Numbered from the stretch's first letter, positions 3,089 through 46,892 are shown. The stretch: 64,000 nt of DNA from an uncultured bacterium (GCA_963827235.1 CAWHAE010000008.1:192001-256000); one strand, 5' to 3'. Notes: generated by a model from the sequence alone, not told the origin. Made by a program: numbers and translations.

Positions 3089-3614
3089 GTCGTGGCTGAC
3101 CTCCTGGCTGCAAATGACGCCGTCCTGGCGTCCGATACACATGTCGGTACCACAGTCCAGCCTGGCACGCGCGCCGGATGTGGATCGCGGTGGGTCTGCT
3201 TTGGTGTAGGCTCTTGGCGTCCCGGCGTCAAGTGCGCGTTCGCGGCCGCGCTTCCCTTGGACGCTTCGCCTCTATTTCAGTGTAGGCCGCCGCTGGAAAC
3301 CGCGCTGGTGCGACACAGCAGCGGTCCGTGCGAATTGCGCGACAGAGTGCTTCGGCCCGGCAATCCTGGGTGCCGCGGACGCCTCCGCACGTGCAGGGCA
3401 TAGCCTGCATGGTTCTGAGATAACACACAGCAGCGTTTGAGCGTAGGCGTGTTCCCAGACACGCGTTGCCCGCGCATCCGCTCACCGGTGATGCAAGCCG
3501 GCGCTTGGATGGGCGGGCAGCGATCTGACTCCACGCTCGCGGCAAGCCTATCCCACGGGCTGCTGCCGCTGCGGTAGCCCGGGCACGGTCGTCGAGAGTG
3601 CCCGGGGCGTGATC

Positions 3615-4952
3615 CTACTCATATCGAAGTGCTTGAATCGGGTCCAGGGCCGCCGCTCGGCTGGCGGGATAGCTGCCAAAGAAAAGACCGATGGCCAGCG
3701 AGACTCCAAAGGCAAGAGCCACGGAGTTCGAGCTGATCACCGGTGTCGCGCTGCCGAAGAATCCGGACAGAACTTTCACATCCGAGAGAAGCCACGCGAC
3801 CAGGAAGCTCATGCCGACGCCGATGGCACCACCCGTCGCACTGATCATTATCGACTCGGTCAGAAACTGCATGAGGATATCGATCTTGCGGGCCCCGACG
3901 GCCTTGCGAAGCCCGATCTCGCGGGTTCGCTCCGTCACGGTGACCAACATGATGTTCATGATCCCTATGCCCGCGACCAGGAGTGCACAGGCGGAGACAC
4001 CGGCCAACAGGGTCGTCAGCGTACCGGAGACACTGGAGGCCGTCTGCTGCACAGTCGTCTGGCTAAAGAACGAGAAGTCGTCGGACGCCGAGTACGTCAA
4101 GCGATGCAGGCTCCGCAGCATGCTCTCGACCTCCGCCTCGGCCAGATTGGTGGTACTCTGTTTCGTCGCCTCGATGTTGATCGACGAGAGCGATCCGGTG
4201 CTGCCCGAGGAGTGCGGCAAGATGGTCTGAGCCGTGGTCAGCGGGACGTACACCACGTTGTCCTGGTTGACGCCGCCGCTTCCGCCCTTGGACGCCATTA
4301 CACCCACGATCTCGAAGGTTATGCCGTTGAGTTGCACCGACGAACCCACGGTAGCGGAAGCAGACTCGTTGGGAAACAACGTGCTCAACAGCGTGGCGCC
4401 GATGCATACCACCTGGGATCGACTCACGAGATCGCTGCTGGTAACGAACCGGCCAATGGCAACCTGGGCGTTGCGAACGGTCTCGTACTCAGGCGTAACG
4501 CCGTCGACGGACGTGTACGTGTTTTCGCTGCCTGCCACGATCTGAGCGTTCGTGTCGAACTCGGGGGCAACCAATGCCACGTCCGGCAGGCTGCCCGAGG
4601 AGCCGGCGTTGTCGGCCAACGTCTGCGCATCCGACAGCTTCAGCGTACTCGACGATCCCATGGCGCCGCGGACACCTCCTGAGAACGTAGAGCCGGCCTG
4701 CACCTCCACGAGATTTGTGCCAAGCGAGCTGAGCTGAGAGTTAACCTGGCTCGCCGAGCCGTTGCCGATGCCGACGGCTACGATGACCGAGGCCACGCCG
4801 ATGATCATGCCCAATAGCGTAAGGGCCGTGCGCGCCTTGTTCGTGAGAATCCCCGTCACGGCGACGTTCATCGTCGTGAGGACCTGTGCTAGCACCGCGA
4901 TGGGAGGACGTCCGGACGCCTGCTCTGCCGGATGTAAGGCTTGTGTTGCCAT
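3615..4952 (-). CDS. MacB/FtsX-family ABC transporter permease (no fused ATPase domain)
   Basis: NKARTALTLLGMIIGVASVI...LGTNLV, a large extracytoplasmic domain, GIGIMNIMLVTVTERTREIGLRKAVGA and GLFFGSYPASRAAALDPIQALRYE. The likely start is ATG 4952, immediately after the adaptor stop. Confidence 0.93.
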   Translation of the reverse strand: MATQALHPAEQASGRPPIAVLAQVLTTMNVAVTGILTNKARTALTLLGMIIGVASVIVAVGIGNGSASQVNSQLSSLGTNLVEVQAGSTFSGGVRGAMGSSSTLKLSDAQTLADNAGSSGSLPDVALVAPEFDTNAQIVAGSENTYTSVDGVTPEYETVRNAQVAIGRFVTSSDLVSRSQVVCIGATLLSTLFPNESASATVGSSVQLNGITFEIVGVMASKGGSGGVNQDNVVYVPLTTAQTILPHSSGSTGSLSSINIEATKQSTTNLAEAEVESMLRSLHRLTYSASDDFSFFSQTTVQQTASSVSGTLTTLLAGVSACALLVAGIGIMNIMLVTVTERTREIGLRKAVGARKIDILMQFLTESIMISATGGAIGVGMSFLVAWLLSDVKVLSGFFGSATPVISSNSVALAFGVSLAIGLFFGSYPASRAAALDPIQALRYE

Positions 4953-4953
4953 G

Positions 4954-7900
4954 TTATCTACCCGGTCCTCCGCCCATACCGCCCATGCCACCCATGCCCC
5001 CCATACCGCCAATGCCGCCTGAGCTGCTCGACGCACTGGTGGTGCCGGAGGTCGTGGGCACGATGATCCTCTCGTTTTCCTGCAGACCGCTCAGGACCTG
5101 CGTGTAGCTCGTGTCGCTTGTGCCCGTCTGGACCTGCACTTGCGATATCTGGTTCGTGGCGCTCAGAGTTTCCACGAAGCTGCCCGCCGCGTTGGTAGTG
5201 ACGGCCTGCGTGGGTACTTCCAGCACATTGCTGACCTGGGCGGTGACTATCGTCAGATCGGCGGTCATGCCCGCTGTTATGCCCTTCGTGCTGCCGGATA
5301 GCTTGATCTTCACGGGATAGGTCGTCACATTGGATGAGGTGGTCGCCGCGTAGGGTATGCTGCTGACCAGGCCGACGTACGTCGTGGATGGATAGGCGCT
5401 GAAAACCAGTGCTACCGGGTCGCCGATCTGGATACTGGCTATCTCGGCTTCGGGGATGTCAGCTGTCACGTCTATGCCCTGCGTGGTCAGCATCGTGATC
5501 GCCGCGGTGCTGGAGCCGGCGGCCTCGCCATTCACGATGCTGACGGACTCGACCGTACCGTCGCTGGGCGCGTAGATCTTCGTTTCGCTCTCGGCCAGAG
5601 CCTGATCGACCTTCAGCGTCTGCTTCGCCTGGGCGAGACTTGCCTTCAGGATGGCAAGCTCGGTTGCCGTGTAGGGATGGATGACCAGGTCGAGCGCAGC
5701 CTGTGCGCTCTTGACTGCCTCCTCCTGCTGCGCGATATCGTTGGAGGAATTCGGCTGCTTCGCCAGGTCGAGAGCGATCTGAGCGTTGACCACGGAGTCC
5801 TGCGCCTGCTGGATATCGGTCGTGCTTCCGGGGTGCTCGGCGAGAGCCAACGCCTGCTCTTCGGCTACCACGTTGTCACGGGCCTGCTGGATGTCGGTTG
5901 TACTGTTAGGCTGCTTTGCAGCTGCAAGAGCGGACTCAGCGCTGGCAACGGTCAGCTTCTGTTGGGCGATGTCGACCGCCGAGTTCGGCTGCTTTGCCGC
6001 GACCAGCGCAGCCTGAGCGCTCGATACTGCATCCTCTGCCTGGCGAATATCCTGAGCGGAGTATGGTTGCTTCGTTGAAGTCAGTGCTGCCTGCGCGCTC
6101 TTGACCGCCGCCTCCTGCGAGACGATGTCGGTCGCGGAATTGGGTTGCTCGACGGCGACTAGTGCGGCTTTCGCGCTCTGTACTGCCGCTTCCTCCGACG
6201 CGATGTCGGCGGCTGAGTTGGGCTGCTCGGCAGCTGCCAGGGCCGCTTTCGCGCTCTGTACTGCCGCTTCCTCCGACGCGATGTCGGCGGCTGAGTTGGG
6301 CTGCTCGGCAGCTGCCAGGGCCGCTTTCGCGCTCTGTACTGCCGCTTCCTGCGACGCGATGTCGGCAGCGGAGTTGGGTTGCTCGGCCGCGGCCAGACTC
6401 TCCTGGGCGCTCTTGACCGAGTCTGCCTGCGAAGCGATATCGGTCTGCGAGTTGGGCTGTTCCGCCGCCGCGAGCACGGTATTGGCGTTGTTGACCGTGA
6501 CTTCCTGCGAGGCAATCTGAGCCGCCGTGTATGGATGCTCGGCAGCAGTAAGTGCCTCCTGTGCGCTCGTGACCGCCGCCTCCTGGGAGGCGATATCGGT
6601 TGCGGAGTTGGGCTGCTTGGCCGCGACAAGCGCGGCCTCGGCGCTTCGAACGGCGATCTCCTGGGAGGCAATGTCGGATGCCGAGTTTGGCTGTATTGCC
6701 GCGGCCAGCGCCACCTGGGCGCTCTTCACGGTTGCCTCCTGTGAGGCAATGTCCTGCGTTGTATAGGGGTGCTCGGCCGAGTACAGGGATGCCTCAGCCG
6801 TCGCGATGGCATCTTTTGCGGAGGCCAGGTCCGTGGCACTGGCGGGCGCGGTAGCTGTGGTGAGCGCCGCTTCGGCCGATTTCACCGAGTCCTCGGCGGA
6901 TGCGAGAATCGGTTGAGCTAGCCGGCGCCAGCGCCGCGTCTAGCGACGCCTGGGCCGAGATGATGGAATCCTGTGCGGACGCAAGATCCGTGGCAGTGGC
7001 CGAGCCACTCTGAGCCGTGTCGAGCGAGTTCTGAGCCTGAATCACGGCGTCCTGGGCCTTGGCCAGGTCGGTGGAAGTCGGCGAGGGCGACTGGTCCGCG
7101 TTCAGCTTCGCTTGCGCGGCAGCGACCTGCTGCTGAGCGAGAGTTACGGCATTCGCTTCGGGACTATTCAGAGCGGCGAGGGCAGCGGTGGCGCTTGCCA
7201 CACTGGCGTTGTCGTTGGCGATGTTGGCCTCATCGGTGGCCAGATTCTCAAGGTAGGTCGCTTCTTCGCTCGATAGGGTGGTGGAGCTGGTGGTGCTGGA
7301 AGCCACGGGCGCCGTAAGCAGCGAGAGCGCTACCTGGTCTGTCTGCAGCTTGTTCTGAGCGGATAGCAATGTGGCCTTGGCTTGGGCGACAGATGACGCA
7401 GTCGGGTTGGACAGGCTATTGAGTGAGTTCTGAGCCGACGTTAGGCTGGCCTGGTCGGAGTCCAGGGTGGCCGCCGTCGCCGGTGAGTAGAGAGCGGCCA
7501 GGCTCTGCTTTGCGCTGTCGAGGCTTGCCTTTGCCGAGGCGATCGTGGCAGCACTGGAAGGTGCTTGCAAGGCAATCAGCTTCTGTTTGGCGGAGTCAAG
7601 GCTGGCCCGTAGCTGTGCAAGCGTCGTCGCCGATGGAGCCGCCTTGAGGGCGATGAGCTTCTGCTTGGCGGAGTCGAGGCTGGTCTCGGCCTGCGCCACG
7701 GTCTGGGCGCTTGGTGGCGCCTGCAGGGCCTTGAGCTTTTGAATCGCCGAGTCCAGACTGGCCTTCGCCGCGACGAGCGTATTTGCATCCGGAGGCGACT
7801 GCATTTCGTTGAGCTTGATCTGGGCCTGCTGCATTGTGGCCTTGGCCTGAGCGATGGAGCTTGCCGTGCCACCCGTCTTCATAGCAGCGAGCTTAATCTG

Positions 7901-9247
7901 GGCCTGCTCGAGAGAGGCTTTGGCCTGAGCAATGCTGCTCGGCGTGCCGCCGGCCTTCATGGCTGCCAGCTTGATCTGGGCTTGCTTGAGTGTGATCTGG
8001 GCCTGCGCTATGCTCGTGGCAGTTCCGCCTGCCCTCATCGAGGCCAGCGTGATCTCGGCCTGCTGCAATGTGGCCTTAGCCTGAGCGATGCTGGAAGCGG
8101 TGCCGCCGGCCTTCATGGCAGCCAGCTTCAGCTCTGCCTGCTCGAGGCTCAGCTTGGCCTGGGCGATGCTGGAAGCGGTGCCGCCGGCCTTCATGGCAGC
8201 CAGCTTCAGCTCTGCCTGCTCGAGGCTCAGCTTGGCCTGGGCGATGCTGGAAGCGGTGCCGCCGGCCTTCATGGCAGCCAGCTTCAGCTCTGCCTGCTCG
8301 AGGCTCAGCTTGGCCTGGGCGATGCTGGAAGCGGTGCCGCCGGCCTTCATGGCAGCCAGCTTCAGCTCTGCCTGCTCGAGGCTCAGCTTGGCCTGGGTGA
8401 TGCTGGAGGCCGTGCCGCCCTTCTTCATGGCAGCCAGCTTCAGCTGAGCCTGCAGAAGCGAGGCTTTCGCCTGGGCGACGCTCGCGGCCGTGCCGCCTGC
8501 TTTTTCGGTCGCAAGCTTTGACTTGGCCTCGTCGAGAGCTTGCTGCGCCTGCGCAATGCTGGCCGCGGTCCCACCGGCCTCCATCGAAGCGAGCTTGGCC
8601 TGCGCGGCGGCAAGCGTGTTGGCGGCCTGGGCAATCGACGACGCGGTGCCGCCCTGCTCGAGCGCTGCCAGTTTCTGCTGTGCGGTATCGAGATTCAGCT
8701 GGGCCGTCTCGATGGAGGAAGCGGTGCCGTTTTGCAAAGCGGCCAGCTTCGATTTCGCCGAGTCGAGGCTGGCCACCGCTTCGGCGATGCTCGCCGCGGT
8801 CCCGCCCGCCTTCAACGCAGCAAGCTTGAGCTGTGCCTGCCGCAAGCTTGACTGCGCCTGCGTCAGCGAGTCAGGGTTGACGGGTGCGAGCTCCTTGTCC
8901 AGGTTGAGCTGGGCAGTGGTGACGGCATTCTGGTCACTCATCAGTGACAGCGAGAGCGACTGATCGCTGAGCGTAGCCAGTACCTGGTTCTTCTTCACCT
9001 TCTGCCCGGCGGTCGCGAGCACGCTTGCCACGGTGCCCGACGCCCCGAAAGTGAGCGAGTAAGAGGTGACATCCTCTGATGTTCCCGAGGGCGTTATGGA
9101 GGACGTGATCGTGCCGCGGGAGACCAGCATGACCCGTCCATCGATGCGCTGTGGCGTGCTGATTCCCGGTAGCGAGAAAGCGGCGGTCACACTGCCGCTG
9201 GTGACGAGAGCCGCGAGAAGAGCGAATCGAGCCGTGGTTCCTTTCAT
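4954..9247 (-). CDS. giant MacA/HlyD-family membrane-fusion (adaptor) protein, ~1430 aa, split by one apparent +1 indel at ~6907
   Basis: N-terminal hydrophobic anchor and first lipoyl half-motif (FGASGTVASVLATAGQKVKKNQVLATL). About 40 26-aa helical repeats follow, then the second lipoyl half (IYAPSDGTVESV), beta-barrel and membrane-proximal domains (IPEAEIASIQIGD, GMTADLTI, LEVPTQAV, VLSGLQENERI). Deleting one base of minus-strand GATTCTC restores the repeat unit TDLASAEDSVKSAEAAL. RBS GGAGG. Confidence 0.9.
6167..6395 (-). repeat. 78-bp tandem repeat, ~3 near-identical copies (PNSAADIASEEAAVQSAKAALAAAEQ)
   Basis: gctttcgcgctctgtactgccgcttcct... recurs at 6167, 6245 and 6323. Confidence 0.95.
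8085..8402 (-). repeat. 78-bp tandem repeat, ~4 near-identical copies (GGTASSIAQAKLSLEQAELKLAAMKA)
   Basis: ctggaagcggtgccgccggccttcatggcagcc... recurs at 8091, 8169, 8247 and 8325. Confidence 0.95.
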
Positions 9248-9504
9248 GGTCGCACCTCCGGACCTAAACGCGACAAAGCATGGCTACCCTGCCTGCGTGG
9301 CGCCACGCGTCGCCGACGCAAGAACTTTGGTGAGCACATGTTGGCTTGGCGGGACATAGGCGTGCCTCTACGGGGCAAAGACATCGTGGGCATAAGTAGC
9401 ATGGGCGATTCAGTGTCTCGAGGCGCTCGGCCGTTGCGACTGTCGGAGTGAATACGGCGCACGGACCGAGAGCACTCAGCGGCCATACCTGTATCTCTTC
9501 GGCA

Positions 9505-9583
9505 ATAGTAATAAGGGCGCGTAAGATGGCCCTAAGCGGTGGCTAAGAAATCCCTGAGCATTGACCAAGAGTTTGCCAAGAAG
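9505..9583 (-). promoter_or_regulatory. phased 11-bp direct-repeat array (TCTTGG/GCTCAG/TCTTAG/GCTTAG/TCTTAC) plus -10 TACTAT, upstream of the adaptor-permease operon
   Basis: Plus-strand complements start at 9576, 9565, 9554, 9543, 9532 and 9521 (11-bp period). Minus-strand TACTAT lies at 9510-9505. Confidence 0.75.
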
Positions 9584-9609
9584 AATGATTTGTGATGAGG
9601 CACGGAAGG

Positions 9610-9641
9610 GCCGGGGATGCGCCGGCAAACGCATCCCCGGC
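9610..9641 (-). terminator. GC-rich hairpin downstream of the Ser-rich gene
   Basis: GCCGGGGATGCG-ccggcaaa-CGCATCCCCGGC is a 12-bp perfect stem with no clear U-tract. Confidence 0.55.
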
Positions 9642-9706
9642 AGGAGTTGTGGACGAAGCCGCGCACTGGCGGGTGGCCCCGGTCCACGTGGGCGCCGGCG
9701 CCTGAG

Positions 9707-10903
9707 CTAGTCCGTACTGGTCAGGTAGCCGCTGGAGGTGCTGGAGCTCGTTGCGGATTGCAAAGCTGCGAGCAGAGCCTTCAGAAGGTCCTGGCTGGAC
9801 GAGCTGGACGAACTGGACGAGCTGGTGGAACTCGCCGCATTGGTGGCGCTGGCAGCATCGGACTGCGTGGAACTACTGTCGCTCGCGCCGGTACCGGCCG
9901 GCGGCGGAGGCGGCGGCAGGTTGCCGTTGCCGGCAACGCTGGAAAGAGCGGCCGCGAGCTCCTTGAGGAGGTCGTCTCCGGTCGTGGTCGAGGACGAGGA
10001 CGTGCTCGAGTCGGACGAGCTGGATGACGAGCTCGTGCCGCTCGCGGCGGTCTCGAGCGCAGTGGCCAGCTCCTTGAGCAGACTCTGGCTCTGATCAGTG
10101 CTGCTGCTCGTCGTGCTGGAGTCGGTTGTACTGGTCGACGAGCTGGTGCCGCTCGCCGACGTGGACGTGCTGTCCGAAGATGTGGCCGACTCCAGGGCGG
10201 AAGCGAGTGCGCTCAGCAGCTTCTGACCCCGTTCCACGCTCGCCGAATCAGACGACGAGCCGGAGCTCGTGTCGCCGGTCGCGTTTTCCAGCGCTGCGGC
10301 GAGGTCCTTCAGCATGCCACCGCCGGGAGGCGGCGGCGGGGCGCCGGTCTGCGCAGTCACTGCGGTAGAGCTGCCGCTACTGCTCGTGCTGTCGGTACCG
10401 GAGTCGCCGGTGATGCTCTGCAGGGCGCTGGCAAGGGCCTTTAGCAGATCCTGGCCCGTGAGCGTCGAAGACGAGCTGGATGTGGCGTCAGTACTGGTGG
10501 TGGCGTCGGCGCTGGTCGTGCCATCACTGCTCGTCGTCGAGCTGGTGCCGGCGGTAGAATCGCTGCTCTGACCGATCGCCGACTGCAACGCCTGGGACAA
10601 CGCCTGCAAGAGGTCCTGCCCCTGGAATCCCTGGCCGGACTGGTAGCCGGGCGGCGGCCCATAGGTGTTGCCGTCGTAGGTGATGCCGTTCGTGCTGCTA
10701 GTGGAACCCGACGTGGATGACGTATCGTACGAGCTTTCCAGGTTCTGCAGGGCGTCGTCGGACAGCTCGAGACTGTAGCTTGACTCGCTGGAGGAAGTAG
10801 TGGAGCTGGAGCCAGTTGCCTGGCTGAGGGCTTGTTCGAGAAGCTTTTCGAGACGGCTCGATTCACTGGACGATCCGGTACCGCCGATCGACGAGATACT
10901 CAT
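9707..10903 (-). CDS. Ser/Thr-rich low-complexity protein with 8 amphipathic LLKALASAL-type repeats (harpin-like composition), 398 aa
   Basis: RBS AAAGGAG 8 nt before ATG 10903 (MSISSIGGTG...). Repeats include GQDLLQALSQALQS, GQDLLKALASALQS, GQKLLSALASALES and SQDLLKALLAALQS. Poly-Pro tracts are present. No Cys/Trp and no signal peptide. Confidence 0.85.
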   Translation of the reverse strand: MSISSIGGTGSSSESSRLEKLLEQALSQATGSSSTTSSSESSYSLELSDDALQNLESSYDTSSTSGSTSSTNGITYDGNTYGPPPGYQSGQGFQGQDLLQALSQALQSAIGQSSDSTAGTSSTTSSDGTTSADATTSTDATSSSSSTLTGQDLLKALASALQSITGDSGTDSTSSSGSSTAVTAQTGAPPPPPGGGMLKDLAAALENATGDTSSGSSSDSASVERGQKLLSALASALESATSSDSTSTSASGTSSSTSTTDSSTTSSSTDQSQSLLKELATALETAASGTSSSSSSSDSSTSSSSTTTGDDLLKELAAALSSVAGNGNLPPPPPPAGTGASDSSSTQSDAASATNAASSTSSSSSSSSSSQDLLKALLAALQSATSSSTSSGYLTSTD

Positions 10904-11024
10904 TCGGCTCACTCCTTTTCGGCTCGGCTCGTGTCAGATGCGATATATACTTCAGGTCGACCTCTGCATCTAGTGTCGTCACGAATACCCGCATTTTCAG
11001 AGCGATAAAGGGCCGAAATTGAGG

Positions 11025-11077
11025 TTCTTGGCAAACTCTTAGCAAGTTCTTAGCGAAACCTTAGGAAGCAGGCTCAG
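11025..11077 (+). promoter_or_regulatory. phased 11-bp direct-repeat array between divergent genes
   Basis: TCTTGG 11026, TCTTAG 11037, TCTTAG 11048 and CCTTAG 11059. TTCTTGGCAAACTCTT is shared exactly with the minus-strand array at ~9567-9582. Confidence 0.75.
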
Positions 11078-11247
11078 GGTCAATATCGGAAGCGGCACCC
11101 GCCTCACATCTGACGAGTCGGGCGCAGGCGGCGTGAGAACAACCGGACGATCGGGCGTGGGATGTTCGTGCAAGGGGCGGACATGGCGGCGGTCGACCCG
11201 GTCTATCTGCATGGCGTCCGCGTTCGAGTCAGGCCCGGTTTTGGGAC

Positions 11248-11324
11248 ACTTGTCAATCTCTTAGTTCTTTCTGTCTGTCTGCTTGCTTTTCACATAGGGT
11301 GCTCTTGGTTGACGTTTCTAACAT
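11248..11324 (+). promoter_or_regulatory. degenerate 11-bp repeat array plus -10 TAACAT upstream of the surface-protein gene
   Basis: TCTTAG 11259 and TCTTGG 11303 are 44 bp (4x11) apart, with degenerate units between. TAACAT at 11319 has the same 16-nt offset as in the 9.5 kb promoter. Confidence 0.55.
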
Positions 11325-11489
11325 GAAATCGTAAACAGCGGGAGGGCAGCAATCAGTTGCAGCGCAGGCCGGTTAGAAGTCGGGAGATACGGTCAAGGCC
11401 CAACTTGGGTCTGATCGTGCAAACCTGACAACACGCTTGCCCGGGTAGGCTCTCCGCTTCGCGGCGCTCCGCATGGAGGAGGAGTAGCT

Positions 11490-14400
11490 ATGGACGCCAA
11501 TCTTCGTCATTGCACGGCTCATCGCGTTGCCCGTCGTGTCCGTGGGTGGCCGCCAGTCATCGTGGCAGTGCTGGTTGCCAGTATCGTGATCGTTCCCTCG
11601 TGGAACGCAGGGCTCATTCAGGCGGCCTCTAGCAGCCAATCATCTGCCGTACTGCGTGCATCGAATGCAGCCGGCGGCGACACAGTGGCCCGATCGCGTG
11701 TTCTCGACGACGTCACCGCGACCACCGTGCCGACATCCACGTTCGTCCCCACGTCGACCACTGGTCCGACCACCGTCCCGACGTCCACATCCGTCCCCAC
11801 GTCGACCGCTGCCCCGACCACCGTCCCGACGTCCACGTCCGTTCCCACCTCGACGCCGGTGCCTTCGTCCACGTCGACCCACACGGTCGTGCCGACCTCC
11901 ACCGATACTGCGATCCCAACCTCGTCTGATACCGCGACGCAGACTTTCACGGCGACGTCGACGAACACCGCGATAGCCACGGCCACGTCGACGGTCGGAG
12001 GCCTGACACTGAGTCCGTCGTCGGGCGCCAGCGGCGCCAGCGTCTACATCTATGGGAGCGGGTTTTCGTCAAGCGAGGAAGTTTCCATCTATGTCGCCGG
12101 GACATATGACACGTATGTGTACGCCAGCAGCGGCGCGGTGAGCACATACATCTCGTTCCCCTCGACTACAATTACAGGTTACGTGGTCGTCGAGCTGCTC
12201 GGGGCCTCGAGCGGGCACGAGGACACCGGGGAATTCGATGTCACAAGCACCTCGAGTACCACACTCACGTTGTCTCCGACCTCCGGCTCAGCCGGTACCA
12301 CGGTGACGGCCTACGGTAGCGGATTCACGGCAGGGGAGACCGTCGAGGTCATGGCCAACGGCTCGGAGGTGGAAACCACGGCGACCTCGAGCAGCTCAGT
12401 CACCGTCTCCTTCACCTTTCCTTCGACCTCGAGCACCGGCTATAAGACGGTTGAGCTGTACGGACTCACCAGCGGGCATGTCGCCACTGCCTCCTTCTAT
12501 GTCTCCAGCACGTCGAGCACCACGCTCACGCTGTCGCCGACCTACGGAACCACCGGCAGTACCGTCACGGCGTACGGCACCGGATTTACGTACGGCGAGC
12601 TGGTCGAGCTGATGGCCAACGGCTCGTACGTCACAGAACAGACGGCCACGAGTACTGCGGTCACCATATCGTTCAGCTATCCCTCGACATCCAGCACGGG
12701 TTACCAGACAGTTGAAATGTACGGCCTCAGCAGCGGGCACACGGCTACCGCGTCGTTCGACGTGACAAGCACGTCGAGCAGCACGCTCACCTTGTCGCCT
12801 ACCTCGGGAAGTGCCGGCACGACGGTGACCGCCTACGGCACAGGGTTCACCTACGGCGAGTCGATCGAGCTGATGGCGAACGGCACGGAGGTAGAGGAAG
12901 TCACGGCGAGCAGCACTGCCGTCACCGTCTCGTTCAGCTACCCCTCGACGTCCAGCACTGGCTATCAAACGGTGGAGCTCTACGGTCTGAGCAGTGGGCA
13001 CACGGCGAGTGGTTCCTTCTACGTCTCGAGCACCTCGAGCAGCACGCTCACCCTGTCACCCACTTCCGGGACCACTGGTACCACAGTCACCGCCTATGGC
13101 ACCGGATTCACCTATGGCGAGTCGGTCGAGGTGCTGGCGAACGGCACCGAGATAGAGGTCGTGACGGCTACAAGCACGGCTGTGACGATCTCCTTCAGCT
13201 ACCCCTCTACGTCCGCCACGGGATATCAGACAGTAGAGCTCTACGGCCTGTCCAGCGGGCATACGGCGTCGGCCTCGTTCTACGTCACCGCTACGTCGAC
13301 CTCGAGCTTCACGTTGAGCCCGACCAGTGGCAAGCCGGGAGCGACGGTGTCGGCGACCGGCTATGAAACCACGTTCAGTCTTTATGGCGCTCAGACCGTC
13401 ACGATCAGCTTCGGCGGCACACAGGTCGCCACCGTGACGCCCGGCACCGCGGGCTACTTCAGCGTGTCCTTCACGGTCCCGAGCGGATTCAGCGGTACGG
13501 TGACGGTCACGGCCACCGCCGCGGCCTACGGCTATTCTGCCTCCCAGACCTTCTCGGTCGTCAAGCCAACGCTGACACTTGGTAGCAGCTCTGCGGTGCC
13601 CGGTACCCTGGTCTCGCTCAGTGGTACTGGATACACGCCGGGCGAGACTGTGACGATCACTCTGCCCGGGGGCGGCACCACCACTGCCACTGCCGGTAGC
13701 TCGGGCGCGCTGAGCACCTCGGTGACCATCCCGGCCGGTCTGTCCGCGGGTAGCGCCACGATCAGCGCGATAGGATCGAGCAGCCAGATCACGGTGAGCG
13801 CCACGCTGACCATAACCGGCGCCAGCCTGAGCGCAAGACCGGCCAGCGTCTCTGCAGGGAGCCAGGTCACGTTCAGCGGGAGCGGTTTTGCTCCCGGCGA
13901 AGTGGTGCAGCTCAGCGATTCGACAGGCGATAGCCAGAGCGTGGTGGCCGACAACCAGGGCGGCATGAGCGTAACGATTACGGTTCCTGCCACCCAGGTC
14001 ACGGGGTCGGCCGCGTTCACGGCACGAGGCCTGACGAGCAAATCGTCGGCATCGGCCACGGTCTTCGTGGCTGCGGTTGCCGTTCGTGCTGCTACCCCGA
14101 CCAGCACGCCGAGGCCGACCGTGCAGGTCTCGCCTACGGTGGCTGCTCCGAGCGCAAACACCGGTAGCTCCACCTGGTACTTCGCGGCCGGTCGCACGGA
14201 CAAGGGCTACAGCGAGCAGGTCGACGTGCTCAATCCCAATCATAGCTTGGTTCGCGGCACCATCACCCTGTACTACGGGAGCGGGAAGAGTACTTCCACC
14301 TCATTCAGCCTGGGAGCACTGGAACGCGGGACGTACGATGTGGGCAGCATTGTCGGCATGCAGCGCGGCATTGCAATTGTGATCAAAGCCGGCATGCCGG

Positions 14401-15419
14401 TGGCAGCGACGGTCACCGGCGAGCACGGCACAACCAACAAGACCGTGCTGAGCGGTGTCTCGGCGACGGCAGACAAGTGGTACTTTGCCGACGGCTATAC
14501 CACCAAGGCGTTCGTGGAAACCCTGGACGTGTTCAACCCAGGATCCACCTCCGCGTCCGTGCGGGTGACGTGGCCTCGGACCGGCGGCAAGTCCGTGCAG
14601 ACGACATTCACAGTGGCAGCGCATAGCGTGCGGTCGGTGTCCGTAAACAAGTATGTGCCAGGCACGTCGCATGCCATGATCGTGAGCTCCAATCACGCTG
14701 TGGTCGTGGCTCGCGAGACGGTATTCGGGTCCAAGAGCCAGGGGACTATGGTTACTCAGGGTACGTCACGTGCCGCGACCAAGCTCTACCTGGCCGAGGG
14801 CTCCACGACCGGTGGTGTCCAGGAATCGGTGACCGTGCTTGACCCCGGCAGCAAGAGCGCGCATGTTACGCTGACGTTCTATGCAAGTAGCGGCAAGTCC
14901 ATCGCCAAGCGCACGCTGACGGTCGGCAGCGTGCAGCGGCAGAGCATCGACGTCAACAGCATCACGAACTCGGCCTCGGTGGCGGCCGTTGTCAGCAGTG
15001 ACGTGCCGGTAGTGGCCGAGCGAATCATCTTCACCGGCAGCCCCAACGGAAGCTCCGCTGGCGGCACAGACGTGCTGGCGAGTGCGATCGCTGCCAGCGG
15101 CTGGGCCTTCGCCTCCGGTGACACGAGCGCCGGCAACAAGGAGTTCATCACTCTGCTCAACCCGGTGGGCAAGGCCGCGACGATCGTGGCCACCTGGTAC
15201 TCGAGCAGTGGCGAGCTCGTTCAGAGGCAGTTCACCCTGCCGGCCAACGCACGGATCACGATTGACGTCTCGCGCTCGGCGGGCACACTGCCGGCCGGAA
15301 GTCATGCCACGGTCCTGCGATCGCTGGCCGGTTCGCCGTTCGTCGTCGAACAGTCGCTCTATGATGGCGCGATGAAGCAGTGCGGCACGACGTCGGGCAC
15401 GTCGCTCGTCGGATCGTAA
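11490..15419 (+). CDS. large secreted/surface protein: signal anchor, Thr/Pro linker, tandem Ig-like (IPT/TIG-like) repeats, C-terminal WYFAxG-repeat region (DUF5719-like)
   Basis: RBS GGAGGAGGAG and a hydrophobic N-terminus. 87-aa repeats LTLSPTSGxxGTTVTAYGxGF. C-terminal repeats WYFAAGRT, WYFADGYT, LYLAEGST and WAFASGDT. Confidence 0.88.
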   Translation: MDANLRHCTAHRVARRVRGWPPVIVAVLVASIVIVPSWNAGLIQAASSSQSSAVLRASNAAGGDTVARSRVLDDVTATTVPTSTFVPTSTTGPTTVPTSTSVPTSTAAPTTVPTSTSVPTSTPVPSSTSTHTVVPTSTDTAIPTSSDTATQTFTATSTNTAIATATSTVGGLTLSPSSGASGASVYIYGSGFSSSEEVSIYVAGTYDTYVYASSGAVSTYISFPSTTITGYVVVELLGASSGHEDTGEFDVTSTSSTTLTLSPTSGSAGTTVTAYGSGFTAGETVEVMANGSEVETTATSSSSVTVSFTFPSTSSTGYKTVELYGLTSGHVATASFYVSSTSSTTLTLSPTYGTTGSTVTAYGTGFTYGELVELMANGSYVTEQTATSTAVTISFSYPSTSSTGYQTVEMYGLSSGHTATASFDVTSTSSSTLTLSPTSGSAGTTVTAYGTGFTYGESIELMANGTEVEEVTASSTAVTVSFSYPSTSSTGYQTVELYGLSSGHTASGSFYVSSTSSSTLTLSPTSGTTGTTVTAYGTGFTYGESVEVLANGTEIEVVTATSTAVTISFSYPSTSATGYQTVELYGLSSGHTASASFYVTATSTSSFTLSPTSGKPGATVSATGYETTFSLYGAQTVTISFGGTQVATVTPGTAGYFSVSFTVPSGFSGTVTVTATAAAYGYSASQTFSVVKPTLTLGSSSAVPGTLVSLSGTGYTPGETVTITLPGGGTTTATAGSSGALSTSVTIPAGLSAGSATISAIGSSSQITVSATLTITGASLSARPASVSAGSQVTFSGSGFAPGEVVQLSDSTGDSQSVVADNQGGMSVTITVPATQVTGSAAFTARGLTSKSSASATVFVAAVAVRAATPTSTPRPTVQVSPTVAAPSANTGSSTWYFAAGRTDKGYSEQVDVLNPNHSLVRGTITLYYGSGKSTSTSFSLGALERGTYDVGSIVGMQRGIAIVIKAGMPVAATVTGEHGTTNKTVLSGVSATADKWYFADGYTTKAFVETLDVFNPGSTSASVRVTWPRTGGKSVQTTFTVAAHSVRSVSVNKYVPGTSHAMIVSSNHAVVVARETVFGSKSQGTMVTQGTSRAATKLYLAEGSTTGGVQESVTVLDPGSKSAHVTLTFYASSGKSIAKRTLTVGSVQRQSIDVNSITNSASVAAVVSSDVPVVAERIIFTGSPNGSSAGGTDVLASAIAASGWAFASGDTSAGNKEFITLLNPVGKAATIVATWYSSSGELVQRQFTLPANARITIDVSRSAGTLPAGSHATVLRSLAGSPFVVEQSLYDGAMKQCGTTSGTSLVGS
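11721..11870 (+). repeat. 48-bp tandem repeat encoding TTVPTSTSVPTSTxxP (3 copies)
   Basis: accaccgt... at 11721, 11769 and 11817. Confidence 0.85.
12003..13310 (+). repeat. 261-bp (87-aa) intragenic domain repeats, 5 copies
   Basis: LTLSP-coding starts at ~12003, 12264, 12525, 12786 and 13047. Confidence 0.9.
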
Positions 15420-15439
15420 GCCCCGAGTCGCCACGCCCA

Positions 15440-15482
15440 GTGCCGTGAGGGAGCGGTCCAGTGATCCGCTCCCTCACGGCAC
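15440..15482 (+). terminator. 17-bp perfect hairpin after the surface-protein gene
   Basis: GTGCCGTGAGGGAGCGG-tccagtgat-CCGCTCCCTCACGGCAC. Confidence 0.7.
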
Positions 15483-15598
15483 GTTGCTGTCGCCGCCCGC
15501 GGTCCACATGAACTCGGTCGGCCCTCGCGCGAAGGCCGGCGGGAGCTGATTGTCTGTGGAGAACGAGTCTCAGTAACCGGAGAGTGGTCGAGCCATTC

Positions 15599-15664
15599 TC
15601 TTGGCGAGCTCTCAGAGTACTCTTAGGCTCTTCTTACCGCTCAGTCATACACGCTCAGTACGCT
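15599..15664 (+). promoter_or_regulatory. phased 11-bp direct-repeat array plus -10 TACGCT upstream of the glycosyltransferase
   Basis: TCTTGG 15599, TCTCAG 15610, TCTTAG 15621 and TCTTAC 15632. TACGCT at 15659. Confidence 0.75.
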
Positions 15665-15785
15665 GATCGGGTAGATCCCGCAGGGATCCTCGTCGGCCGC
15701 CGGGTCCCGCAGACAGCGAACCAGGCACCGGCCGGGGGCGTCCCAGCTGGACTCGAGTCGCGAGAAAGGAAACCGTCGAACGACG

Positions 15786-18734
15786 ATGGCCATTCGTGAA
15801 ATGCAAGCCCTGAGGGTGCGTGAACGCTCGCGCGCCGTCGACTACGCCGGCGCCCGGGTGATCATGGTGCCATGGCATCGGTTGGCGCTCGGGAGCATCC
15901 TCCTGCTCGCTGTGGTACTCAACTCGTGGGACCTGTCACGCCTCGGCTACGGAAATTCGTATTACGCGGCTGCCGTGCGCAGCATGATGCAGAGCTGGCA
16001 CAACTTCTTCTTCAACTCGTTTGATCCAGGAGGCTTCGTCACCATCGACAAGCCACCGCTGGGATTCTGGTTCCAGGTTGTGAGCGCCAAGCTGTTCGGC
16101 TTCAACGGAATCAGCCTGCTCCTGCCGTCGCTGGTGGCCGGCATTCTCTCAGTGTGGCTGCTCTATGTTCTGGTCGGTCGCGTGTTCGGTCGCGGTGCCG
16201 GGCTGCTCTCCGCGCTGGTCATGGCAGTCACTCCGGTGGCAATCGCTACCAACCGCAGCAACATCATCGACAGCATTCTGGTGCTATTTCTGATTCTGGC
16301 CGCGTGGGCCTTGAGCGTGGCAGCCGCGCGCGGCAGCCTGCGCTGGCTCCTCCTGTGTGCGATGCTTGTCGGGCTGGCCTTCAACGTCAAGATGCTCGAA
16401 GCCTACCTGGCAGTGCCCGCATTCGCAGTCGTCTACCTGCTTGGGGCATCGACCGCCTGGTGGAAGCGCATCATCCACATGCTGATAGCCGCGGTGGTGA
16501 TGCTGGTAGTCTCCCTGTCGTGGGCCTTGGCCGTGGACTTGACCCCAGCCAGCCAGCGGCCATGGGTTGACTCGACCAGCACCAACTCCGAGATCGATCT
16601 GGCGACGGGTTACAACGGTCTGCAGCGACTCACCGGTCAAGGCGGCCCGGGCGGAGGCGGCCCGGGCGGAGGCGGCGCGGGCGGAGGCGGCGCGCCCGGT
16701 CGGGCCGGCGGACGCCAACCCGCTGGTGGCGCCACGGGAAGTAGCAGCAAGACAGGCACGCCGCAGAGTCTCTCGACCATAGGCGGTAACACCGCCGGCA
16801 CGACAAATCAATCCAGTGTCCCGGCACGGCCTGCCGCCGGGTCCCAGCCCGCTACTGGGACCCAGCTTGGTGCCGGGGCACAGCTTGCTCCCGGGATGCA
16901 GACGGCATCAGGTTCCCAGCCTGGTGCGGGGGCCCAACCTGCCGCAGGCTCCCAGCCTGCATTGGGGTCCCAAACTGCTTCGGGATCCCTACCTGCTGCG
17001 GGATCCCAGGCCGCCACCGGGGCTCAGCTTGGGGCCGGGATGCAGCCTGCGACCGGGTCGCAGACTGCACCTGGCTCCCAGACTGGTGTGGCAACGCAGT
17101 TCTCTGCTGGCTCACAACCGGGTACCGGGATCGCCGGCTCGGGCGCACCGGTTACCGGAGCGACCGGTAGCTCGACCAGCGGCAGCGGCTTTCCGGGAAA
17201 CGCGAACGGCAACGGTGGTGGCCCTGGCGGCAACGCTGGTGGCCCTGGCGGCAACGGTGGTGGCCCTGGCGGCGGCGGTGGTGGCCCTGGCGGCGGCGGA
17301 CCAGGTGGCGGCGGCATGTTCGGCACCGGCAATCCAGGGTGGTTCCGCCTGTTCGGCCAGGACTTGGGCGGCCAGGCGAGCTGGCTACTGCCACTAGCCG
17401 CAATCGGATTTCTCGTGGTAGTAGCGAGCCGGCGCTTTCGTCCAACCCTCGATAGAGAGCAACAGACCGCCCTGCTGTGGGGTATATGGCTTCTCACTAC
17501 GGCGGTGTTCTTTAGCGTGGCAGGCTTCTTCCACCAGTACTATCTTGTTACCATGGCGGCACCCATAGCCGCGCTCTCCGGAATCGGCGTGAGCGTCCTC
17601 TGGCAGCAGTACTGCGCGCGCCGCTGGCTTGGCTTGCTGCTCCCGATCGCTTTGCCGATCACGGCTGCGGTCCAGGTGTCGTTGTTGCAGCCCTATCCAT
17701 CGTGGAGTAGCTGGCTGGAGCCGCTGATATATGGGATGACCGGCATCGGCACAGTGATGCTGATACTGGCCCGACTGCTGCGCCTGCATTTCGCTGGTGC
17801 CTTGGCACCCGCCGCCCTCGGCATTGCTCTAGCCTCTGTGCTGGTAGCACCGGCGGCTTGGGCGGCCAACACGGCGACGAGTGGCGGCGGTGGCGGAACG
17901 CCGAGCGCCGGTCCTTCCGCGTCCCAGGGCGGTCCCGGCGGCGGAGGCAGCGGGTCCTTCGGCGGCAACATTGAGCGCGGCGAGTCCAGCGCCGCTTCAC
18001 AGGCGGAGCATGCACAGCCCCTCGAACGTGGCCAAGCGCCCACGAGTGGTCAGATGTCGAAGGACGGGCCGGCTCCTACGAGCGGCCAGGCGCCCAGGAG
18101 CGGCCGTACCTCCACGGGCCTAGGACCGTCGGAGAGCAGTCCTGGTTCCGGCGGTGGCTCCGGAAACGCCGGTGGTGCGGGTGGTGACAATCTGCTGCAA
18201 TACTTGCTGAAGCACCAGGGCAAGACGAAGTTCCTGGTTGCGGTGGGAGACTCCAACAGCGCGGCATCCTACATTATCCAGACAGGCAAGCCGGTGATGT
18301 CCATGGGTGGCTTCACGGGCAGCGACCCGATTCTGACATTGGATCGCCTGAAGACGCTGATCAAGACCAACGCCGTGCGGTTCTTCCAGGGAGTAGGCGG
18401 TCGCGGCTCCGGCGGCGACGTCTCGAGCTGGGTGCAGAGCACGTGCAAGGCCGTCACGGTCGGTGCCAACGGCACCGCCACCGTCACCTCTCCGTCCGCG
18501 AACAGCTCGGCGACCAAGACCGGTTCGTCAGGGTCCGGCGGACAAGCAGGAAGCGCCGTACCCGGAGGATCGAGGAGCACGCTCGTGACCGACTCGAGTT
18601 CCACACACACGACGCTTGGCACAAGCTCAAACGGGCAAGGTTTTGCCGGCGGCCCACAGGGTGGCGGCGGCGGATTCGGTGGCATGGGAGGTAACAATCA
18701 GCAGCTCTACGACTGCGCGGGCGCGGTGAAGTAA
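15786..18734 (+). CDS. ArnT/PMT-family (GT-C fold, YkcB-like) membrane glycosyltransferase with long Gly-rich insertions
   Basis: GNSYYAAAVRSMMQSWHNFFFNSFDPGGFVTIDKPP, GLAFNVKML, RPWVDSTSTNSEIDLATGYNGLQRL, FFHQYY, PVMSMGGFTGSDP and C-terminal LYDC. Confidence 0.92.
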   Translation: MAIREMQALRVRERSRAVDYAGARVIMVPWHRLALGSILLLAVVLNSWDLSRLGYGNSYYAAAVRSMMQSWHNFFFNSFDPGGFVTIDKPPLGFWFQVVSAKLFGFNGISLLLPSLVAGILSVWLLYVLVGRVFGRGAGLLSALVMAVTPVAIATNRSNIIDSILVLFLILAAWALSVAAARGSLRWLLLCAMLVGLAFNVKMLEAYLAVPAFAVVYLLGASTAWWKRIIHMLIAAVVMLVVSLSWALAVDLTPASQRPWVDSTSTNSEIDLATGYNGLQRLTGQGGPGGGGPGGGGAGGGGAPGRAGGRQPAGGATGSSSKTGTPQSLSTIGGNTAGTTNQSSVPARPAAGSQPATGTQLGAGAQLAPGMQTASGSQPGAGAQPAAGSQPALGSQTASGSLPAAGSQAATGAQLGAGMQPATGSQTAPGSQTGVATQFSAGSQPGTGIAGSGAPVTGATGSSTSGSGFPGNANGNGGGPGGNAGGPGGNGGGPGGGGGGPGGGGPGGGGMFGTGNPGWFRLFGQDLGGQASWLLPLAAIGFLVVVASRRFRPTLDREQQTALLWGIWLLTTAVFFSVAGFFHQYYLVTMAAPIAALSGIGVSVLWQQYCARRWLGLLLPIALPITAAVQVSLLQPYPSWSSWLEPLIYGMTGIGTVMLILARLLRLHFAGALAPAALGIALASVLVAPAAWAANTATSGGGGGTPSAGPSASQGGPGGGGSGSFGGNIERGESSAASQAEHAQPLERGQAPTSGQMSKDGPAPTSGQAPRSGRTSTGLGPSESSPGSGGGSGNAGGAGGDNLLQYLLKHQGKTKFLVAVGDSNSAASYIIQTGKPVMSMGGFTGSDPILTLDRLKTLIKTNAVRFFQGVGGRGSGGDVSSWVQSTCKAVTVGANGTATVTSPSANSSATKTGSSGSGGQAGSAVPGGSRSTLVTDSSSTHTTLGTSSNGQGFAGGPQGGGGGFGGMGGNNQQLYDCAGAVK

Positions 18735-18869: not shown

Positions 18870-18916
18870 GCTACCACAAACCAGTCGCGCCGCCGGCGCG
18901 ACTGGTTTGTGGTAGC
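18870..18916. terminator. 22-bp perfect inverted repeat between convergent genes
   Basis: GCTACCACAAACCAGTCGCGCC-gcc-GGCGCGACTGGTTTGTGGTAGC. Confidence 0.7.
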
Positions 18917-18993: not shown

Positions 18994-20280
18994 CTACGAC
19001 GCGGCGCGCATCTGCTTGACGATCTCCGCGCCGAATGCCGAGCACGACACCTTCGTGGCGCCCGGCATCTGTCGTTCCAGATCATAGGTGACGGTCTTGG
19101 CTGCAATGGTACGCCGCACTCCCTCATAGATCAGGTCGGCGGCGTCTTGCCAGCCGAAGTACTCGAACATCATTGCGCCCGACAGGATCACGGAGCCGGG
19201 GTTGACCATGTCTTTGCCGGCGTACTTCGGCGCCGTCCCGTGTGTGGCCTCGAAGATGGCTGCGCTGTCGCCGATATTCGCTCCCGGTGCCATGCCGAGG
19301 CCACCCGTCTGCGCCGCGCAGGCGTCCGAGAAGTAGTCGCCGTTGAGATTCGGCATGGCCAGCACCGAGTATTCGCTGGGCCGGAGCAAAATCTGCTGGA
19401 ACATGGCGTCTGCAATGCGATCCTTGATCACGACCTTCCCTCTGGACCCCCCGGATCCGACCTCGTCCTCGCGCACTGTGCGATCGCCGAACTCGCGGGC
19501 AGCCAGTGCGTACGCCCAGTCGCGGAAGGCGCCTTCGGTGAACTTCTGGATGTTGCCTTTGTGCACAATGGTGACACTCGGGCGGCAGTGATCGATGGCA
19601 TACTGGACCGCCCGCCTCACGAGTCGCTCCGTACCGAACTTGCTGATCGGCTTGATGCCGACGCCCGAGTCCGGCCTCACTGTCTTGCCCAGTTCATCTC
19701 GCAGAAACGCGATGAGCTTGCCGGCTTCCGGCGAGCCGCTGGCAAACTCGATGCCGGAGTAAACGTCCTCAGTGTTTTCGCGGAATATCACGACGTCGAG
19801 TTTCTCCGGTTCCTTGACGGGGCTAGGTACTCCGTCGAAGTATCGCACTGGGCGGATGCAGGCGTAGAGATCGAAGATCAGGCGCAGAGTCACGTTCAGA
19901 CTGCGGATACCTCCTCCGACCGGCGTAGTCAGAGGGCCCTTGATCGCCACCGCGTACTCGCGCAGGGCCTGCGTCGTCTCTACCGGCAGATACTCTCCGT
20001 AGAGCTCCAGGGCCCGATCGCCGGCGTAGACCTCCATCCAGGAAATGCGGCGGCGACCTCCGGAAGTGGCCTCGGCCGCGGCGTCGAATACCGGTTGGCT
20101 GGCGGCCCAGATGTCTGGACCTATCCCGTCGCCGCGCAGAAAGGGCACGATCGGCGTGTCGCTCACCCGAGGCACGCCGGCATCAAACGTAATCCGATCC
20201 CCGGTTGCAGGCACGGTAACGTGCGTCCAGTTGGTCAACACCGAACCTCGACTTTCAACACTTGCTGTCGCGCGTGCCAC
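18994..20280 (-). CDS. icd: NADP-dependent isocitrate dehydrogenase (start uncertain; could be TTG ~20238)
   Basis: [64 protein letters not shown] and [15 protein letters not shown]. Confidence 0.96.
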
Positions 20281-46569: not shown

Positions 46570-46711
46570 CCGTTCTCGATACCTGCCTCGTGCTACCAGT
46601 ACCGGCCAGTGGCGAGAGCACGGAGTCCAGGCCCCGGTGAGTCCTGCACCTGTGTCGTGCTGCCCTGGACTGGTGGCCGGCTGCTGCCCCGATTCGTCGG
46701 GCATTCGCCGC

Positions 46712-46740
46712 TTGACGATCTCTCCGGCAGCAGATATATT
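46712..46740 (+). promoter_or_regulatory. sigma70-type promoter of tRNA-Asn
   Basis: TTGACG-N17-TATATT. Confidence 0.7.
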
Positions 46741-46772
46741 ACCTCTCGCGGCGCCGAAACGCCGTCACCCGA

Positions 46773-46844: not shown

Positions 46845-46855
46845 CAAGTTTGCAG

Positions 46856-46892
46856 GTGCCGCCGGGGTTCCCTCGGCGGCACGTGTGTTTTT
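46856..46892 (+). terminator. intrinsic terminator after the tRNA
   Basis: GTGCCGCCGGGG-tt-CCCTCGGCGGCAC followed by GTGTGTTTTT. Confidence 0.7.

Follow-up and report, generated by a model that had tools for sequence, protein, structure and literature searches.

A candidate envelope regulon with a very long, modular MacA-like adaptor in a probable Chloroflexota bacterium

Between sdhA and icd of an uncultured bacterium lies a compact block of five envelope-related genes, which raises the question of whether these neighbours build one export machine or are separate genes under a common switch. The block was studied in a stretch of 64,000 nucleotides (GCA_963827235.1 CAWHAE010000008.1:192001-256000; hereafter the window, with positions counted from its first base), in which 64 open reading frames (ORFs) were put through a domain scan. 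It encodes a MacB-type permease, a MacA/HlyD-like adaptor, an acidic protein rich in Ser and Thr, a surface protein with immunoglobulin-like (Ig) repeats and a GT-C glycosyltransferase. An interpretation made earlier without database searches (the sequence-only reading) had joined all five into a single co-regulated export and surface system. The present analyses favour, with somewhat better than even confidence, a small envelope regulon of separate genes instead of one machine, in which the pump is MacAB-like and has a special adaptor. All five genes are real and belong, or possibly belong, to the envelope, and the earlier identification of the permease, the leaderless Ser/Thr-rich protein, the 1309-aa Ig-repeat protein and the YkcB/ArnT-like glycosyltransferase agreed with the domain and composition analyses given below, as did the statement that the window holds no TolC gene; only the adaptor departs from that description in not being a single ORF.

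The adaptor is, in the sequence as given, not one intact reading frame. It occupies two overlapping ORFs of the same strand in different frames (6794-9247, 817 aa; 4954-6885, 643 aa), and the length of about 1430 aa that had been claimed is reached only when the T at 6907 is skipped, which gives 780 + 650 = 1430 aa without a stop; its MacA/HlyD-like nature and extraordinary length stood. After this base the repeat pattern TD-LASAEDSVK picks up in the other frame, and the G+C content of third codon positions (GC3) is nearly the same ahead of the break (0.78) and beyond it (0.76). Because GC3 is constant across the break and sdhA (1318-3142, minus strand) also contains two frame changes in this assembly, one near 1897-1915 and another near 1645-1650, the one-base break was read from these sequence features as most likely an assembly error, and the assembly seems to contain single-base indels. 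The ResB gene (42706-44128) is likewise split over two overlapping frames.

Family assignment of the adaptor was consistent between the two pieces. Of the 322 positions of TIGR01730, the N-terminal piece matches 3-133 and the C-terminal piece 52-308; the HlyD_D23 and HlyD_3 domains are located in the C-terminal piece, and MacA and EmrA match the adaptor by sequence. The lipoyl domain is split by a helical insert and followed by barrel and membrane-proximal parts, as in other members of the family, and one hydrophobic segment at N-terminal residues 8-26 provides the membrane anchor.

The helical insert revealed a modular architecture. Self-identity of the adaptor at a lag of 26 residues was 0.52, with more peaks at 52, 78 and 104, and Tandem Repeats Finder detected 78-bp arrays at 7812-8497 in the up arm and at 6090-6625 in the down arm. 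Each module consists of three Ala-rich heptads and a five-residue connector, with large hydrophobic residues every seven positions and Ala between them; Gly and Pro are restricted to the connector, and in both module types every connector has one or the other. The two arms, which are separated by a non-repeat tip (Table 1), have net charges of +19 (up) and -41 (down). The up-arm units that start at residues 281, 307, 333 and 359 share 99-100% of their DNA sequence and lie 296-374 residues from the tip centre, while down-arm units starting at 967 and 993 are 100% identical in DNA and lie 312-338 residues from it; the latter pair is flanked by units of 74-81% identity, the whole stretch lying 286-364 residues from the tip centre. 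The youngest duplications thus occupy mirrored positions in the two arms. Among nine relatives, duplicated blocks were found in both arms and mirrored within about one module in four, in one arm only in three, and in neither arm in two.

Since the lipoyl halves at both ends bring the insert back to its origin, and since the duplications are mirrored, the hairpin was treated as pairing in one long register-matched unit; the heptad pattern, the equal arms and the mirrored duplications support an antiparallel pairing of the arms, as far as sequence can indicate it. If straight, such a hairpin would form a rod of roughly 60-80 nm, given that twenty 21-residue helices at 1.5 Å per residue make at least 63 nm and the connectors would extend this to about 80 nm. 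The tip includes a Ser/Thr-rich stretch, which in an extended rod would be the point farthest from the membrane and is a conceivable site of glycosylation or anchoring.

This adaptor is about four times as long as is usual. An exhaustive search with the C-terminal piece returned 26,836 proteins at E≤1e-3, and statistics were calculated from the best 150 of them. The best three of the 26,836 are fragments (59-46% identity), the first of which is named as an adaptor and comes from a metagenome-assembled genome (MAG) of the Chloroflexota. It is the closest named relative, and the host is probably a Chloroflexota bacterium, a placement made from named relatives alone; the proteins of the window are singletons when clustered at 90% identity, and the G+C content is 61-68% across the region. 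Within the best 150 the median length was 552 aa, 25 proteins had at least 700 aa and one had at least 900 aa, and the longest single adaptor had 839 aa. Of the 117 proteins in this set with at least 450 aa, 79 were periodic (57 at 26 aa, 8 at 33 aa), and the modular long hairpin is therefore a trait of the family. By this comparison of sequences the longest relative found appears to have about half as many modules as the window adaptor. The one protein above 900 aa (P0005, 1045 aa) consists of two complete adaptors fused head to tail. The 33-aa module, seen in P0047, P0088 and P0119, corresponds to one extra heptad (26 + 7), and the rule seems to be 7n+5.

Other searches gave no counterpart of comparable size. 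A genome scan yielded nine loci, of which L001, from a Chloroflexia MAG, is the sole real long-adaptor relative (query residues 8-775 aligned at 37% identity); the remaining eight come from unrelated taxa, match the lipoyl part over only 31-118 residues and were not used. The genome that the window belongs to was not one of the nine. The AlphaFold2 (AF2) model of the 921-aa L001 adaptor (mean predicted local distance difference test score, pLDDT, 72.3; predicted template modelling score, pTM, 0.36) has helices some 22 residues long, interrupted by breaks of 3-5 residues and arranged as 11 + 2 short central + 10, with pLDDT dips at several of the breaks, and its best fold matches are the MacA chains 9qgy_G and 5nik_D. 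A word-based search of proteins of 1127-3215 aa, which is weak evidence, showed no giant relative. In the plasmid collection the C-terminal piece matched 608 records, all below 60% identity and none covering 80% of the query, and in the 25 of the 608 that were listed the match was confined to the last 36-43% of the piece. Length variation within the 90% cluster of P0020 was set aside, as it reflects differing start calls and not gain or loss of modules. Literature searches, which took in passages of PMC4446572 and PMC8277102, brought up no account of adaptors that are very long or modular.

The second line of evidence is a phased motif. Three arrays, A, B and C, were found in the interval, with units spaced at exactly 11 bp and the consensus caAatTCTTAG, in which C7 and T8 are invariant in 14/14 units. 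Array A lies 426 nt upstream of the Ig-protein ATG and points to that gene, and its distance from the ATG of the Ser/Thr-rich protein, to which it has the opposite orientation, is 124 nt. The adaptor ATG is preceded by array B at a distance of about 274 nt and the GT-C ATG by array C at 149 nt, each array having the orientation of its gene. Arrays A and B have the 16-mer TTCTTGGCAAACTCTT in common, and their likeness stops at the array edges; in arrays B and C the last unit is TCTTAC, followed by TAC ten bases on. The window has 18 copies of the pentamer CTTAG, of which 7 are inside arrays when the weak partial array D is counted.

Four phased units scoring at least 16/20 were found at 5 positions in the 64 kb, all of them within arrays A-C, as compared to a mean of 0.005 in shuffled sequences (n=200), and at the same threshold periods of 6-10 and 12-16 gave 0 positions. 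As the motif had been picked after being seen, a control scan was run over all 1024 5-mers: 26 reached at least 17/20 at any locus, and the 15 of them that were inspected all lay in arrays A-C. The phased motif is not a product of chance. The earlier claim that it occurs upstream of each transcription unit holds in that the three arrays are real, but array A is common to two divergent units and faces away from the Ser/Thr-rich gene. Hexamers repeated directly every 11 bp ahead of genes have the layout of OmpR/PhoB-type sites, and the shared motif makes co-regulation of the units plausible.

The flanking genes are sdhA (1790-3142) and icd (18994-20280), both on the minus strand. Four transcription units were assigned to the interval between them, namely the Ser/Thr-rich orphan, adaptor plus permease, the Ig/DUF5719 protein and the GT-C enzyme, because each ends in an inverted repeat that folds far better than shuffled sequences (Table 1). 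The Rfam scan of the window returned a single tRNA and nothing else, with no match at the arrays. An 80-aa ORF at 9244-9486 ahead of the adaptor (GC3 0.62, no family) was treated as non-coding.

The permease contains the MacB_PCD (1.1e-42) and FtsX (1.2e-19) domains, and its best solved relatives are MacB (5lil_A, 3e-54) and Spr0695 (5xu1_M, 4.3e-38). Four hydrophobic blocks were found, giving four transmembrane segments with a MacB_PCD outer domain and a C-terminal FtsX part, and the protein has no nucleotide-binding domain of its own. The adaptor stop (TAA 4956-4954) is separated by 1 nt from the permease ATG at 4952, with GGAGGA 10 nt upstream of that ATG, and this junction leaves no space for an ATPase gene. 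The pump is incomplete in cis, and an ATPase would have to come from another locus. The gene order of L001 is adaptor, ABC ATPase and permease, the permease being 52% identical to that of the window. After the L001 permease, at 14667-15725 on the plus strand, lies a single-pass membrane protein of 352 aa that is rich in Gly, Ser, Ala and Thr, has no Pfam family and is by eye unlike the Ser/Thr-rich protein of the window. OEP/TolC domains were found in 0 of the 64 ORFs, and this absence fits a monoderm host; the closest named relative belongs to the Chloroflexota, a phylum considered monoderm, yet with multilayered envelopes (PMC13319060).

The Ser/Thr-rich ORF has a GC3 of 0.80, as in real genes, and its product contains 44% Ser plus Thr and carries a net charge of -28. 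Eight short amphipathic helices of the type DLLKALAxALxS lie between Ser/Thr and poly-Pro linkers, and neither a signal peptide nor a hydrophobic segment was found. No Pfam or NCBIfam family matched the protein; the homologue search gave one low-complexity match (E 1e-4 over 25% of the query) and no real homologue, and Atlas returned generic serine-rich clusters only, with a recognition of 1538, which is below the useful range.

In the Ig-repeat protein, a hydrophobic signal or anchor (residues 16-45) is followed by a linker rich in Ser, Thr, Pro and Ala (73-150), five Ig-like repeats of 87 aa and further Ig-like domains. When the last 450 aa were scanned alone, DUF5719 (PF18986) was detected at 61.7 bits, against a cut-off of 26.2 (8.4e-17), together with an ASRT module. 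Homologues of the DUF5719 module also occur inside larger proteins named by JGI as thermitase and GH17 glucanase, and the module was therefore read as a general surface-targeting module. The closest homologues of the Ig protein are 52-56% identical; the DUF5719 module had no match in the plasmid collection, and the literature search found no paper naming it. A second large secreted protein, of 946 aa and rich in Thr, Ala, Val, Gly and Ser, is encoded at 54138-56978 on the minus strand (GC3 0.80); it has a signal-like N-terminus and a weak ASRT-like match only, and no TCTTAG array is near it.

The GT-C enzyme carries PMT_2 (9.7e-33; 114.1 bits, cut-off 26.1) and YkcB_C (8.5e-28; 96.5 bits, cut-off 27), and about 14 hydrophobic segments mark it as a multi-span membrane protein. 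ArnT (5ezm) was its sole solved relative by sequence. Low-complexity inserts rich in Gly, Ser, Thr, Pro, Gln and Ala were found at about 277-519, 681-801 and 893-932, the first of which places some 240 residues of repeats between two blocks of membrane segments. Among the 64 ORFs scanned no GT-A partner and no GtrA-type flippase were found. Other sugar genes of the window are a second PMT/PMT_2-type GT-C (25055-26644, plus strand, 529 aa), directly after polA and with no phased array upstream; a mannose-1-phosphate guanylyltransferase-like gene and an NAD-dependent sugar epimerase/dehydratase gene within 45436-47999 (plus strand), a segment that includes the tRNA (46773-46844); and a GT9-family gene (51084-52121), the last three being further envelope-sugar genes.

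Table 1. Features of the sdhA-icd interval, with coordinates in the window
Feature	Coordinates	Strand	Description
Hairpin	3578..3606	-	after permease gene; -19.4 kcal/mol, z -2.6
MacB-type (type VII ABC) permease	3615..4952	-	445 aa from ATG 4952; ORF open from GTG 5036
MacA/HlyD-like adaptor	4954..9247	-	two frames; N-terminal piece 6908-9247 (780 aa in frame), C-terminal piece 4954-6906 (650 aa)
Down arm	5602..7159	-	residues 697-1215, ~20 modules of 26 aa, consensus EdAVkSAqAALaAAEQPNSAtDIASQ
Extra T breaking adaptor frame	6907	-	GAT-T-CTC; N-terminal frame then out of register to stop 6794-6796
Non-repeat tip	7160..7315	-	residues ~645-696
Up arm	7316..8953	-	residues 99-644, ~21 modules of 26 aa, consensus SSIAQAKaSLdqAqqKLAAMkAGGTA
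Array B	9521..9586 (units 9580-9521)	-	6 units: CTTGG, CTTGG, CTCAG, CTTAG, CTTAG, CTTAC
Terminator-like hairpin	9610..9641	-	after Ser/Thr-rich gene, ahead of array B; -29.5 kcal/mol, z -4.1
Acidic Ser/Thr-rich protein	9707..10903	-	398 aa from ATG 10903, AAGGAG 8 nt upstream; ORF 9707-10912
Array A	11021..11064 (units 11027-11064)	+	4 units: CTTGG, CTTAG, CTTAG, CTTAG
Weak partial array D	11243..11275	+	score 14/20; ~215 nt upstream of Ig-protein ATG
Ig-repeat surface protein	11490..15419	+	1309 aa; secreted or anchored; DUF5719/ASRT module DNA 14067-15419
Terminator-like hairpin	15440..15482	+	after Ig-protein gene, ahead of array C; -42.2 kcal/mol, z -6.7
Array C	15594..15637 (units 15600-15637)	+	4 units: CTTGG, CTCAG, CTTAG, CTTAC
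GT-C glycosyltransferase	15786..18734	+	982 aa; PMT_2 residues 88-246, YkcB_C 803-885
23-bp perfect palindrome	18870..18916	.	between convergent GT-C and icd; -47.2 kcal/mol, z -9.3

The view that all five make up a single export and surface system, with the adaptor as a wall-spanning conduit, the Ser/Thr-rich protein as its cargo and the GT-C enzyme glycosylating the Ser/Thr-rich components, draws on the adjacency of the genes and the arrays they have in common, on the acidic, 44% Ser-plus-Thr composition of the presumed cargo, which resembles that of many secreted repeat proteins, on the Ser/Thr-rich stretches of the adaptor tip and the Ig-protein linker, and on the action of PMT_2-type GT-C enzymes outside the membrane (PMC8035078). 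We nevertheless give this view very little weight. MacB-type transporters have no substrate path across their own membrane, their substrates being periplasmic or in the outer leaflet (PMC5985334), whereas the Ser/Thr-rich protein has no signal or hydrophobic segment, its start being fixed by a strong Shine-Dalgarno (SD) sequence; because of this mechanism and the missing export signal it is unlikely to be a cargo, and since the permease is MacB-type and not HlyB-type, a type-1-like route is unavailable as well. The protein is most likely not cargo, and it has no homologues that might show co-inheritance. The synteny expected of a single system also failed in L001, the only relative locus examined, where adaptor, ATPase and permease stand together but the remaining three genes and the arrays are absent. 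Another view accepts the arrays and moves their action to the transcript, where an RNA-binding regulator would recognise the CUUAG repeats of long 5' leaders. The arrays A, B and C are oriented with a downstream gene 149-426 nt before its start and could be transcribed; against this, DNA-binding winged-helix regulators typically have sites repeated at a strict interval of 11 bp, which is one turn of DNA (PMC3973317), Rfam gave no match, and each array follows directly on the terminator-like hairpin of the prior unit, where a promoter is expected. Recognition in RNA is accordingly held to be highly improbable.

The favoured reading, a regulon of separate genes, has points of its own to answer. 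Array A faces away from the Ser/Thr-rich gene and is 426 nt from the Ig-protein start; the promoter scan revealed no sigma-70-like promoter beside any array; the 64-kb window contains no response regulator gene; and L001, one distant relative, has no phased array and lacks the Ser/Thr-rich, Ig-protein and GT-C genes. ABC_tran was found in 0 of the 64 ORFs, in a six-frame search of the window no Walker A motif was accompanied by an ABC signature, and the pump may be incomplete, L001 having an ATPase where the window has none. The frameshift could be genuine, the adaptor then being a pseudogene or a split gene, and the assembler could have mis-counted the four DNA-identical units. Carried further, the frameshift at 6907, the missing ATPase, the lack of promoter-like hexamers at the arrays and the lack of synteny in L001 would describe a locus that is partly dead or linked by coincidence, with a decaying pump and arrays that are a local repeat without a common regulator. 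We judge this improbable: 650 stop-free codons follow the break with GC3 unchanged and the modules intact, the two frame changes in sdhA, a core enzyme gene, point to sequence errors, the adaptor stop and permease start retain a coupled layout with an SD sequence, and three strictly 11-bp-phased arrays, each upstream of a unit and after the prior unit's hairpin, are hard to obtain by chance. A more serious point concerns the shape of the hairpin, whose Gly/Pro connectors every 26 residues could let it bend or fold back. Its modules might pack against one another as a compact or flexible wall-binding or spacer domain, for example a CusB-like bundle, and not as a long straight tube; the presence of Gly or Pro in every connector, the breaks about every 26 residues and pLDDT dips in the L001 model with its pTM of 0.36, and the CusB hairpin, which folds back on itself according to a review (PMC4446572), all agree with such packing. 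We regard it as possible, though clearly short of even probability, since equal module numbers per arm and young duplications mirrored here and in 4/9 relatives fit arms that run antiparallel and pair in register from end to end, the repeat unit is a single helix and not a helix pair, and the arms are of opposite charge.

The regulon of separate genes would then operate as follows. Another locus may encode an OmpR/PhoB-type winged-helix response regulator that binds the 4-6-unit TCTTAG arrays head-to-tail and co-induces the four neighbouring units. One of these units would supply a type VII ABC pump, with the permease translationally coupled to the adaptor and the ATPase provided by another locus, and this pump would work as MacAB, YknXYZ and Spr0693-5 do: a substrate taken up at the outer face of the membrane would be pushed into the channel of the adaptor oligomer by ATP-driven movement of the permease outer domain. 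The hairpin may grow by duplication of modules at matching positions in both arms, and, if straight, would have the length needed to span a multilayered envelope of the Chloroflexota; as envelopes in this phylum are multilayered, a long conduit is plausible. The Ig/DUF5719 protein would be exported by Sec and become wall-associated, and the GT-C enzyme would move a lipid-linked sugar onto an extracytoplasmic acceptor, which could be a wall polymer or the Ser/Thr-rich linkers.

The boldest combination of these elements, in which the 1430-aa adaptor is a segmented alpha-helical tube of 60-80 nm through all envelope layers without an outer-membrane partner, its length tuned by paired additions of 26-aa modules, and is switched on together with the Ig protein, the GT-C enzyme and the Ser/Thr-rich protein by a response regulator as one envelope-remodelling programme, is rather doubtful. 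It would bear on a matter that the available text of two reviews treats as open, namely why monoderm bacteria have such adaptors (PMC5985334, PMC4446572). The 26-aa modules can be counted, about 20 per arm in the window adaptor, and could thus serve as a ruler: were the length of the hairpin to follow the thickness of the envelope, a correlation between module number and envelope architecture would be expected across the Chloroflexota. The mirrored duplications are sequence-level evidence for in-register pairing of the arms and hint at how such hairpins grow, while the three TCTTAG arrays outline a compact candidate regulon in the Chloroflexota, where regulation has received little study. Should the neighbours be no more than separate genes under common control, the interest is moderate and for specialists.

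Comparison with known systems showed both likenesses and differences. The GT-C enzyme shares PMT_2 and YkcB_C with the multi-component YkcB/ArnT/PMT_2 glycosylation systems, and differs from them in having no GT-A partner or flippase nearby and in its very long low-complexity inserts; the function of YkcBC of Bacillus subtilis is itself unknown (PMC8035078; bioRxiv 10.1101/2022.08.30.505962). The arrays recall the PmrA box of the OmpR/PhoB family, CTTAAG-N5-xTTAAT, which is bound head-to-tail on the pbgP/arn promoter (PMC3973317): both have direct hexamer repeats with a 5-bp gap, and the PmrA regulon covers an ArnT-type GT-C and envelope remodelling (PMC3973317, PMC10570014). The resemblance is of layout only, as the window arrays have 4-6 units and not 2, a different sequence (TCTTAG) and a host of another phylum.

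As for the pump, type 1 secretion (HlyB-HlyD-TolC) is similar in that an HlyD-family adaptor stands beside a leaderless acidic protein, but its transporter is HlyB-type and TolC is part of it. In MacAB-TolC of Escherichia coli, MacA is the best fold match of the L001 adaptor and MacB the best sequence match of the window permease, whereas the window lacks a fused nucleotide-binding domain and TolC, its host is of monoderm type and its adaptor hairpin is modular, that of MacA being continuous and short. The long-hairpin adaptors named HlyD family secretion protein from metagenomes and Chloroflexota (P0004, P0020, P0072, P0098 and L001) have the same 26-aa module and the same order of parts, that is, anchor, lipoyl half, modules, tip, modules, lipoyl half, barrel and Gly-rich tail, with 500-921 aa as compared to the 1430 aa of the window adaptor when base 6907 is skipped. 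Spr0693-0694-0695 of Streptococcus pneumoniae and YknXYZ of B. subtilis likewise combine a split-lipoyl adaptor, with beta-barrel and hairpin and no outer-membrane partner (PMC5985334, PMC5768738), with a 4-transmembrane MacB-type permease bearing a large outer domain; their operons, like that of L001, include the ATPase gene that is missing in the window. The helical barrel of Spr0693 is 56 Å high and its assembly rises about 154 Å above the membrane (PMC5768738), whereas the window adaptor, with arms of about 520-545 residues and some 20 modules each, would be roughly ten times longer if straight.

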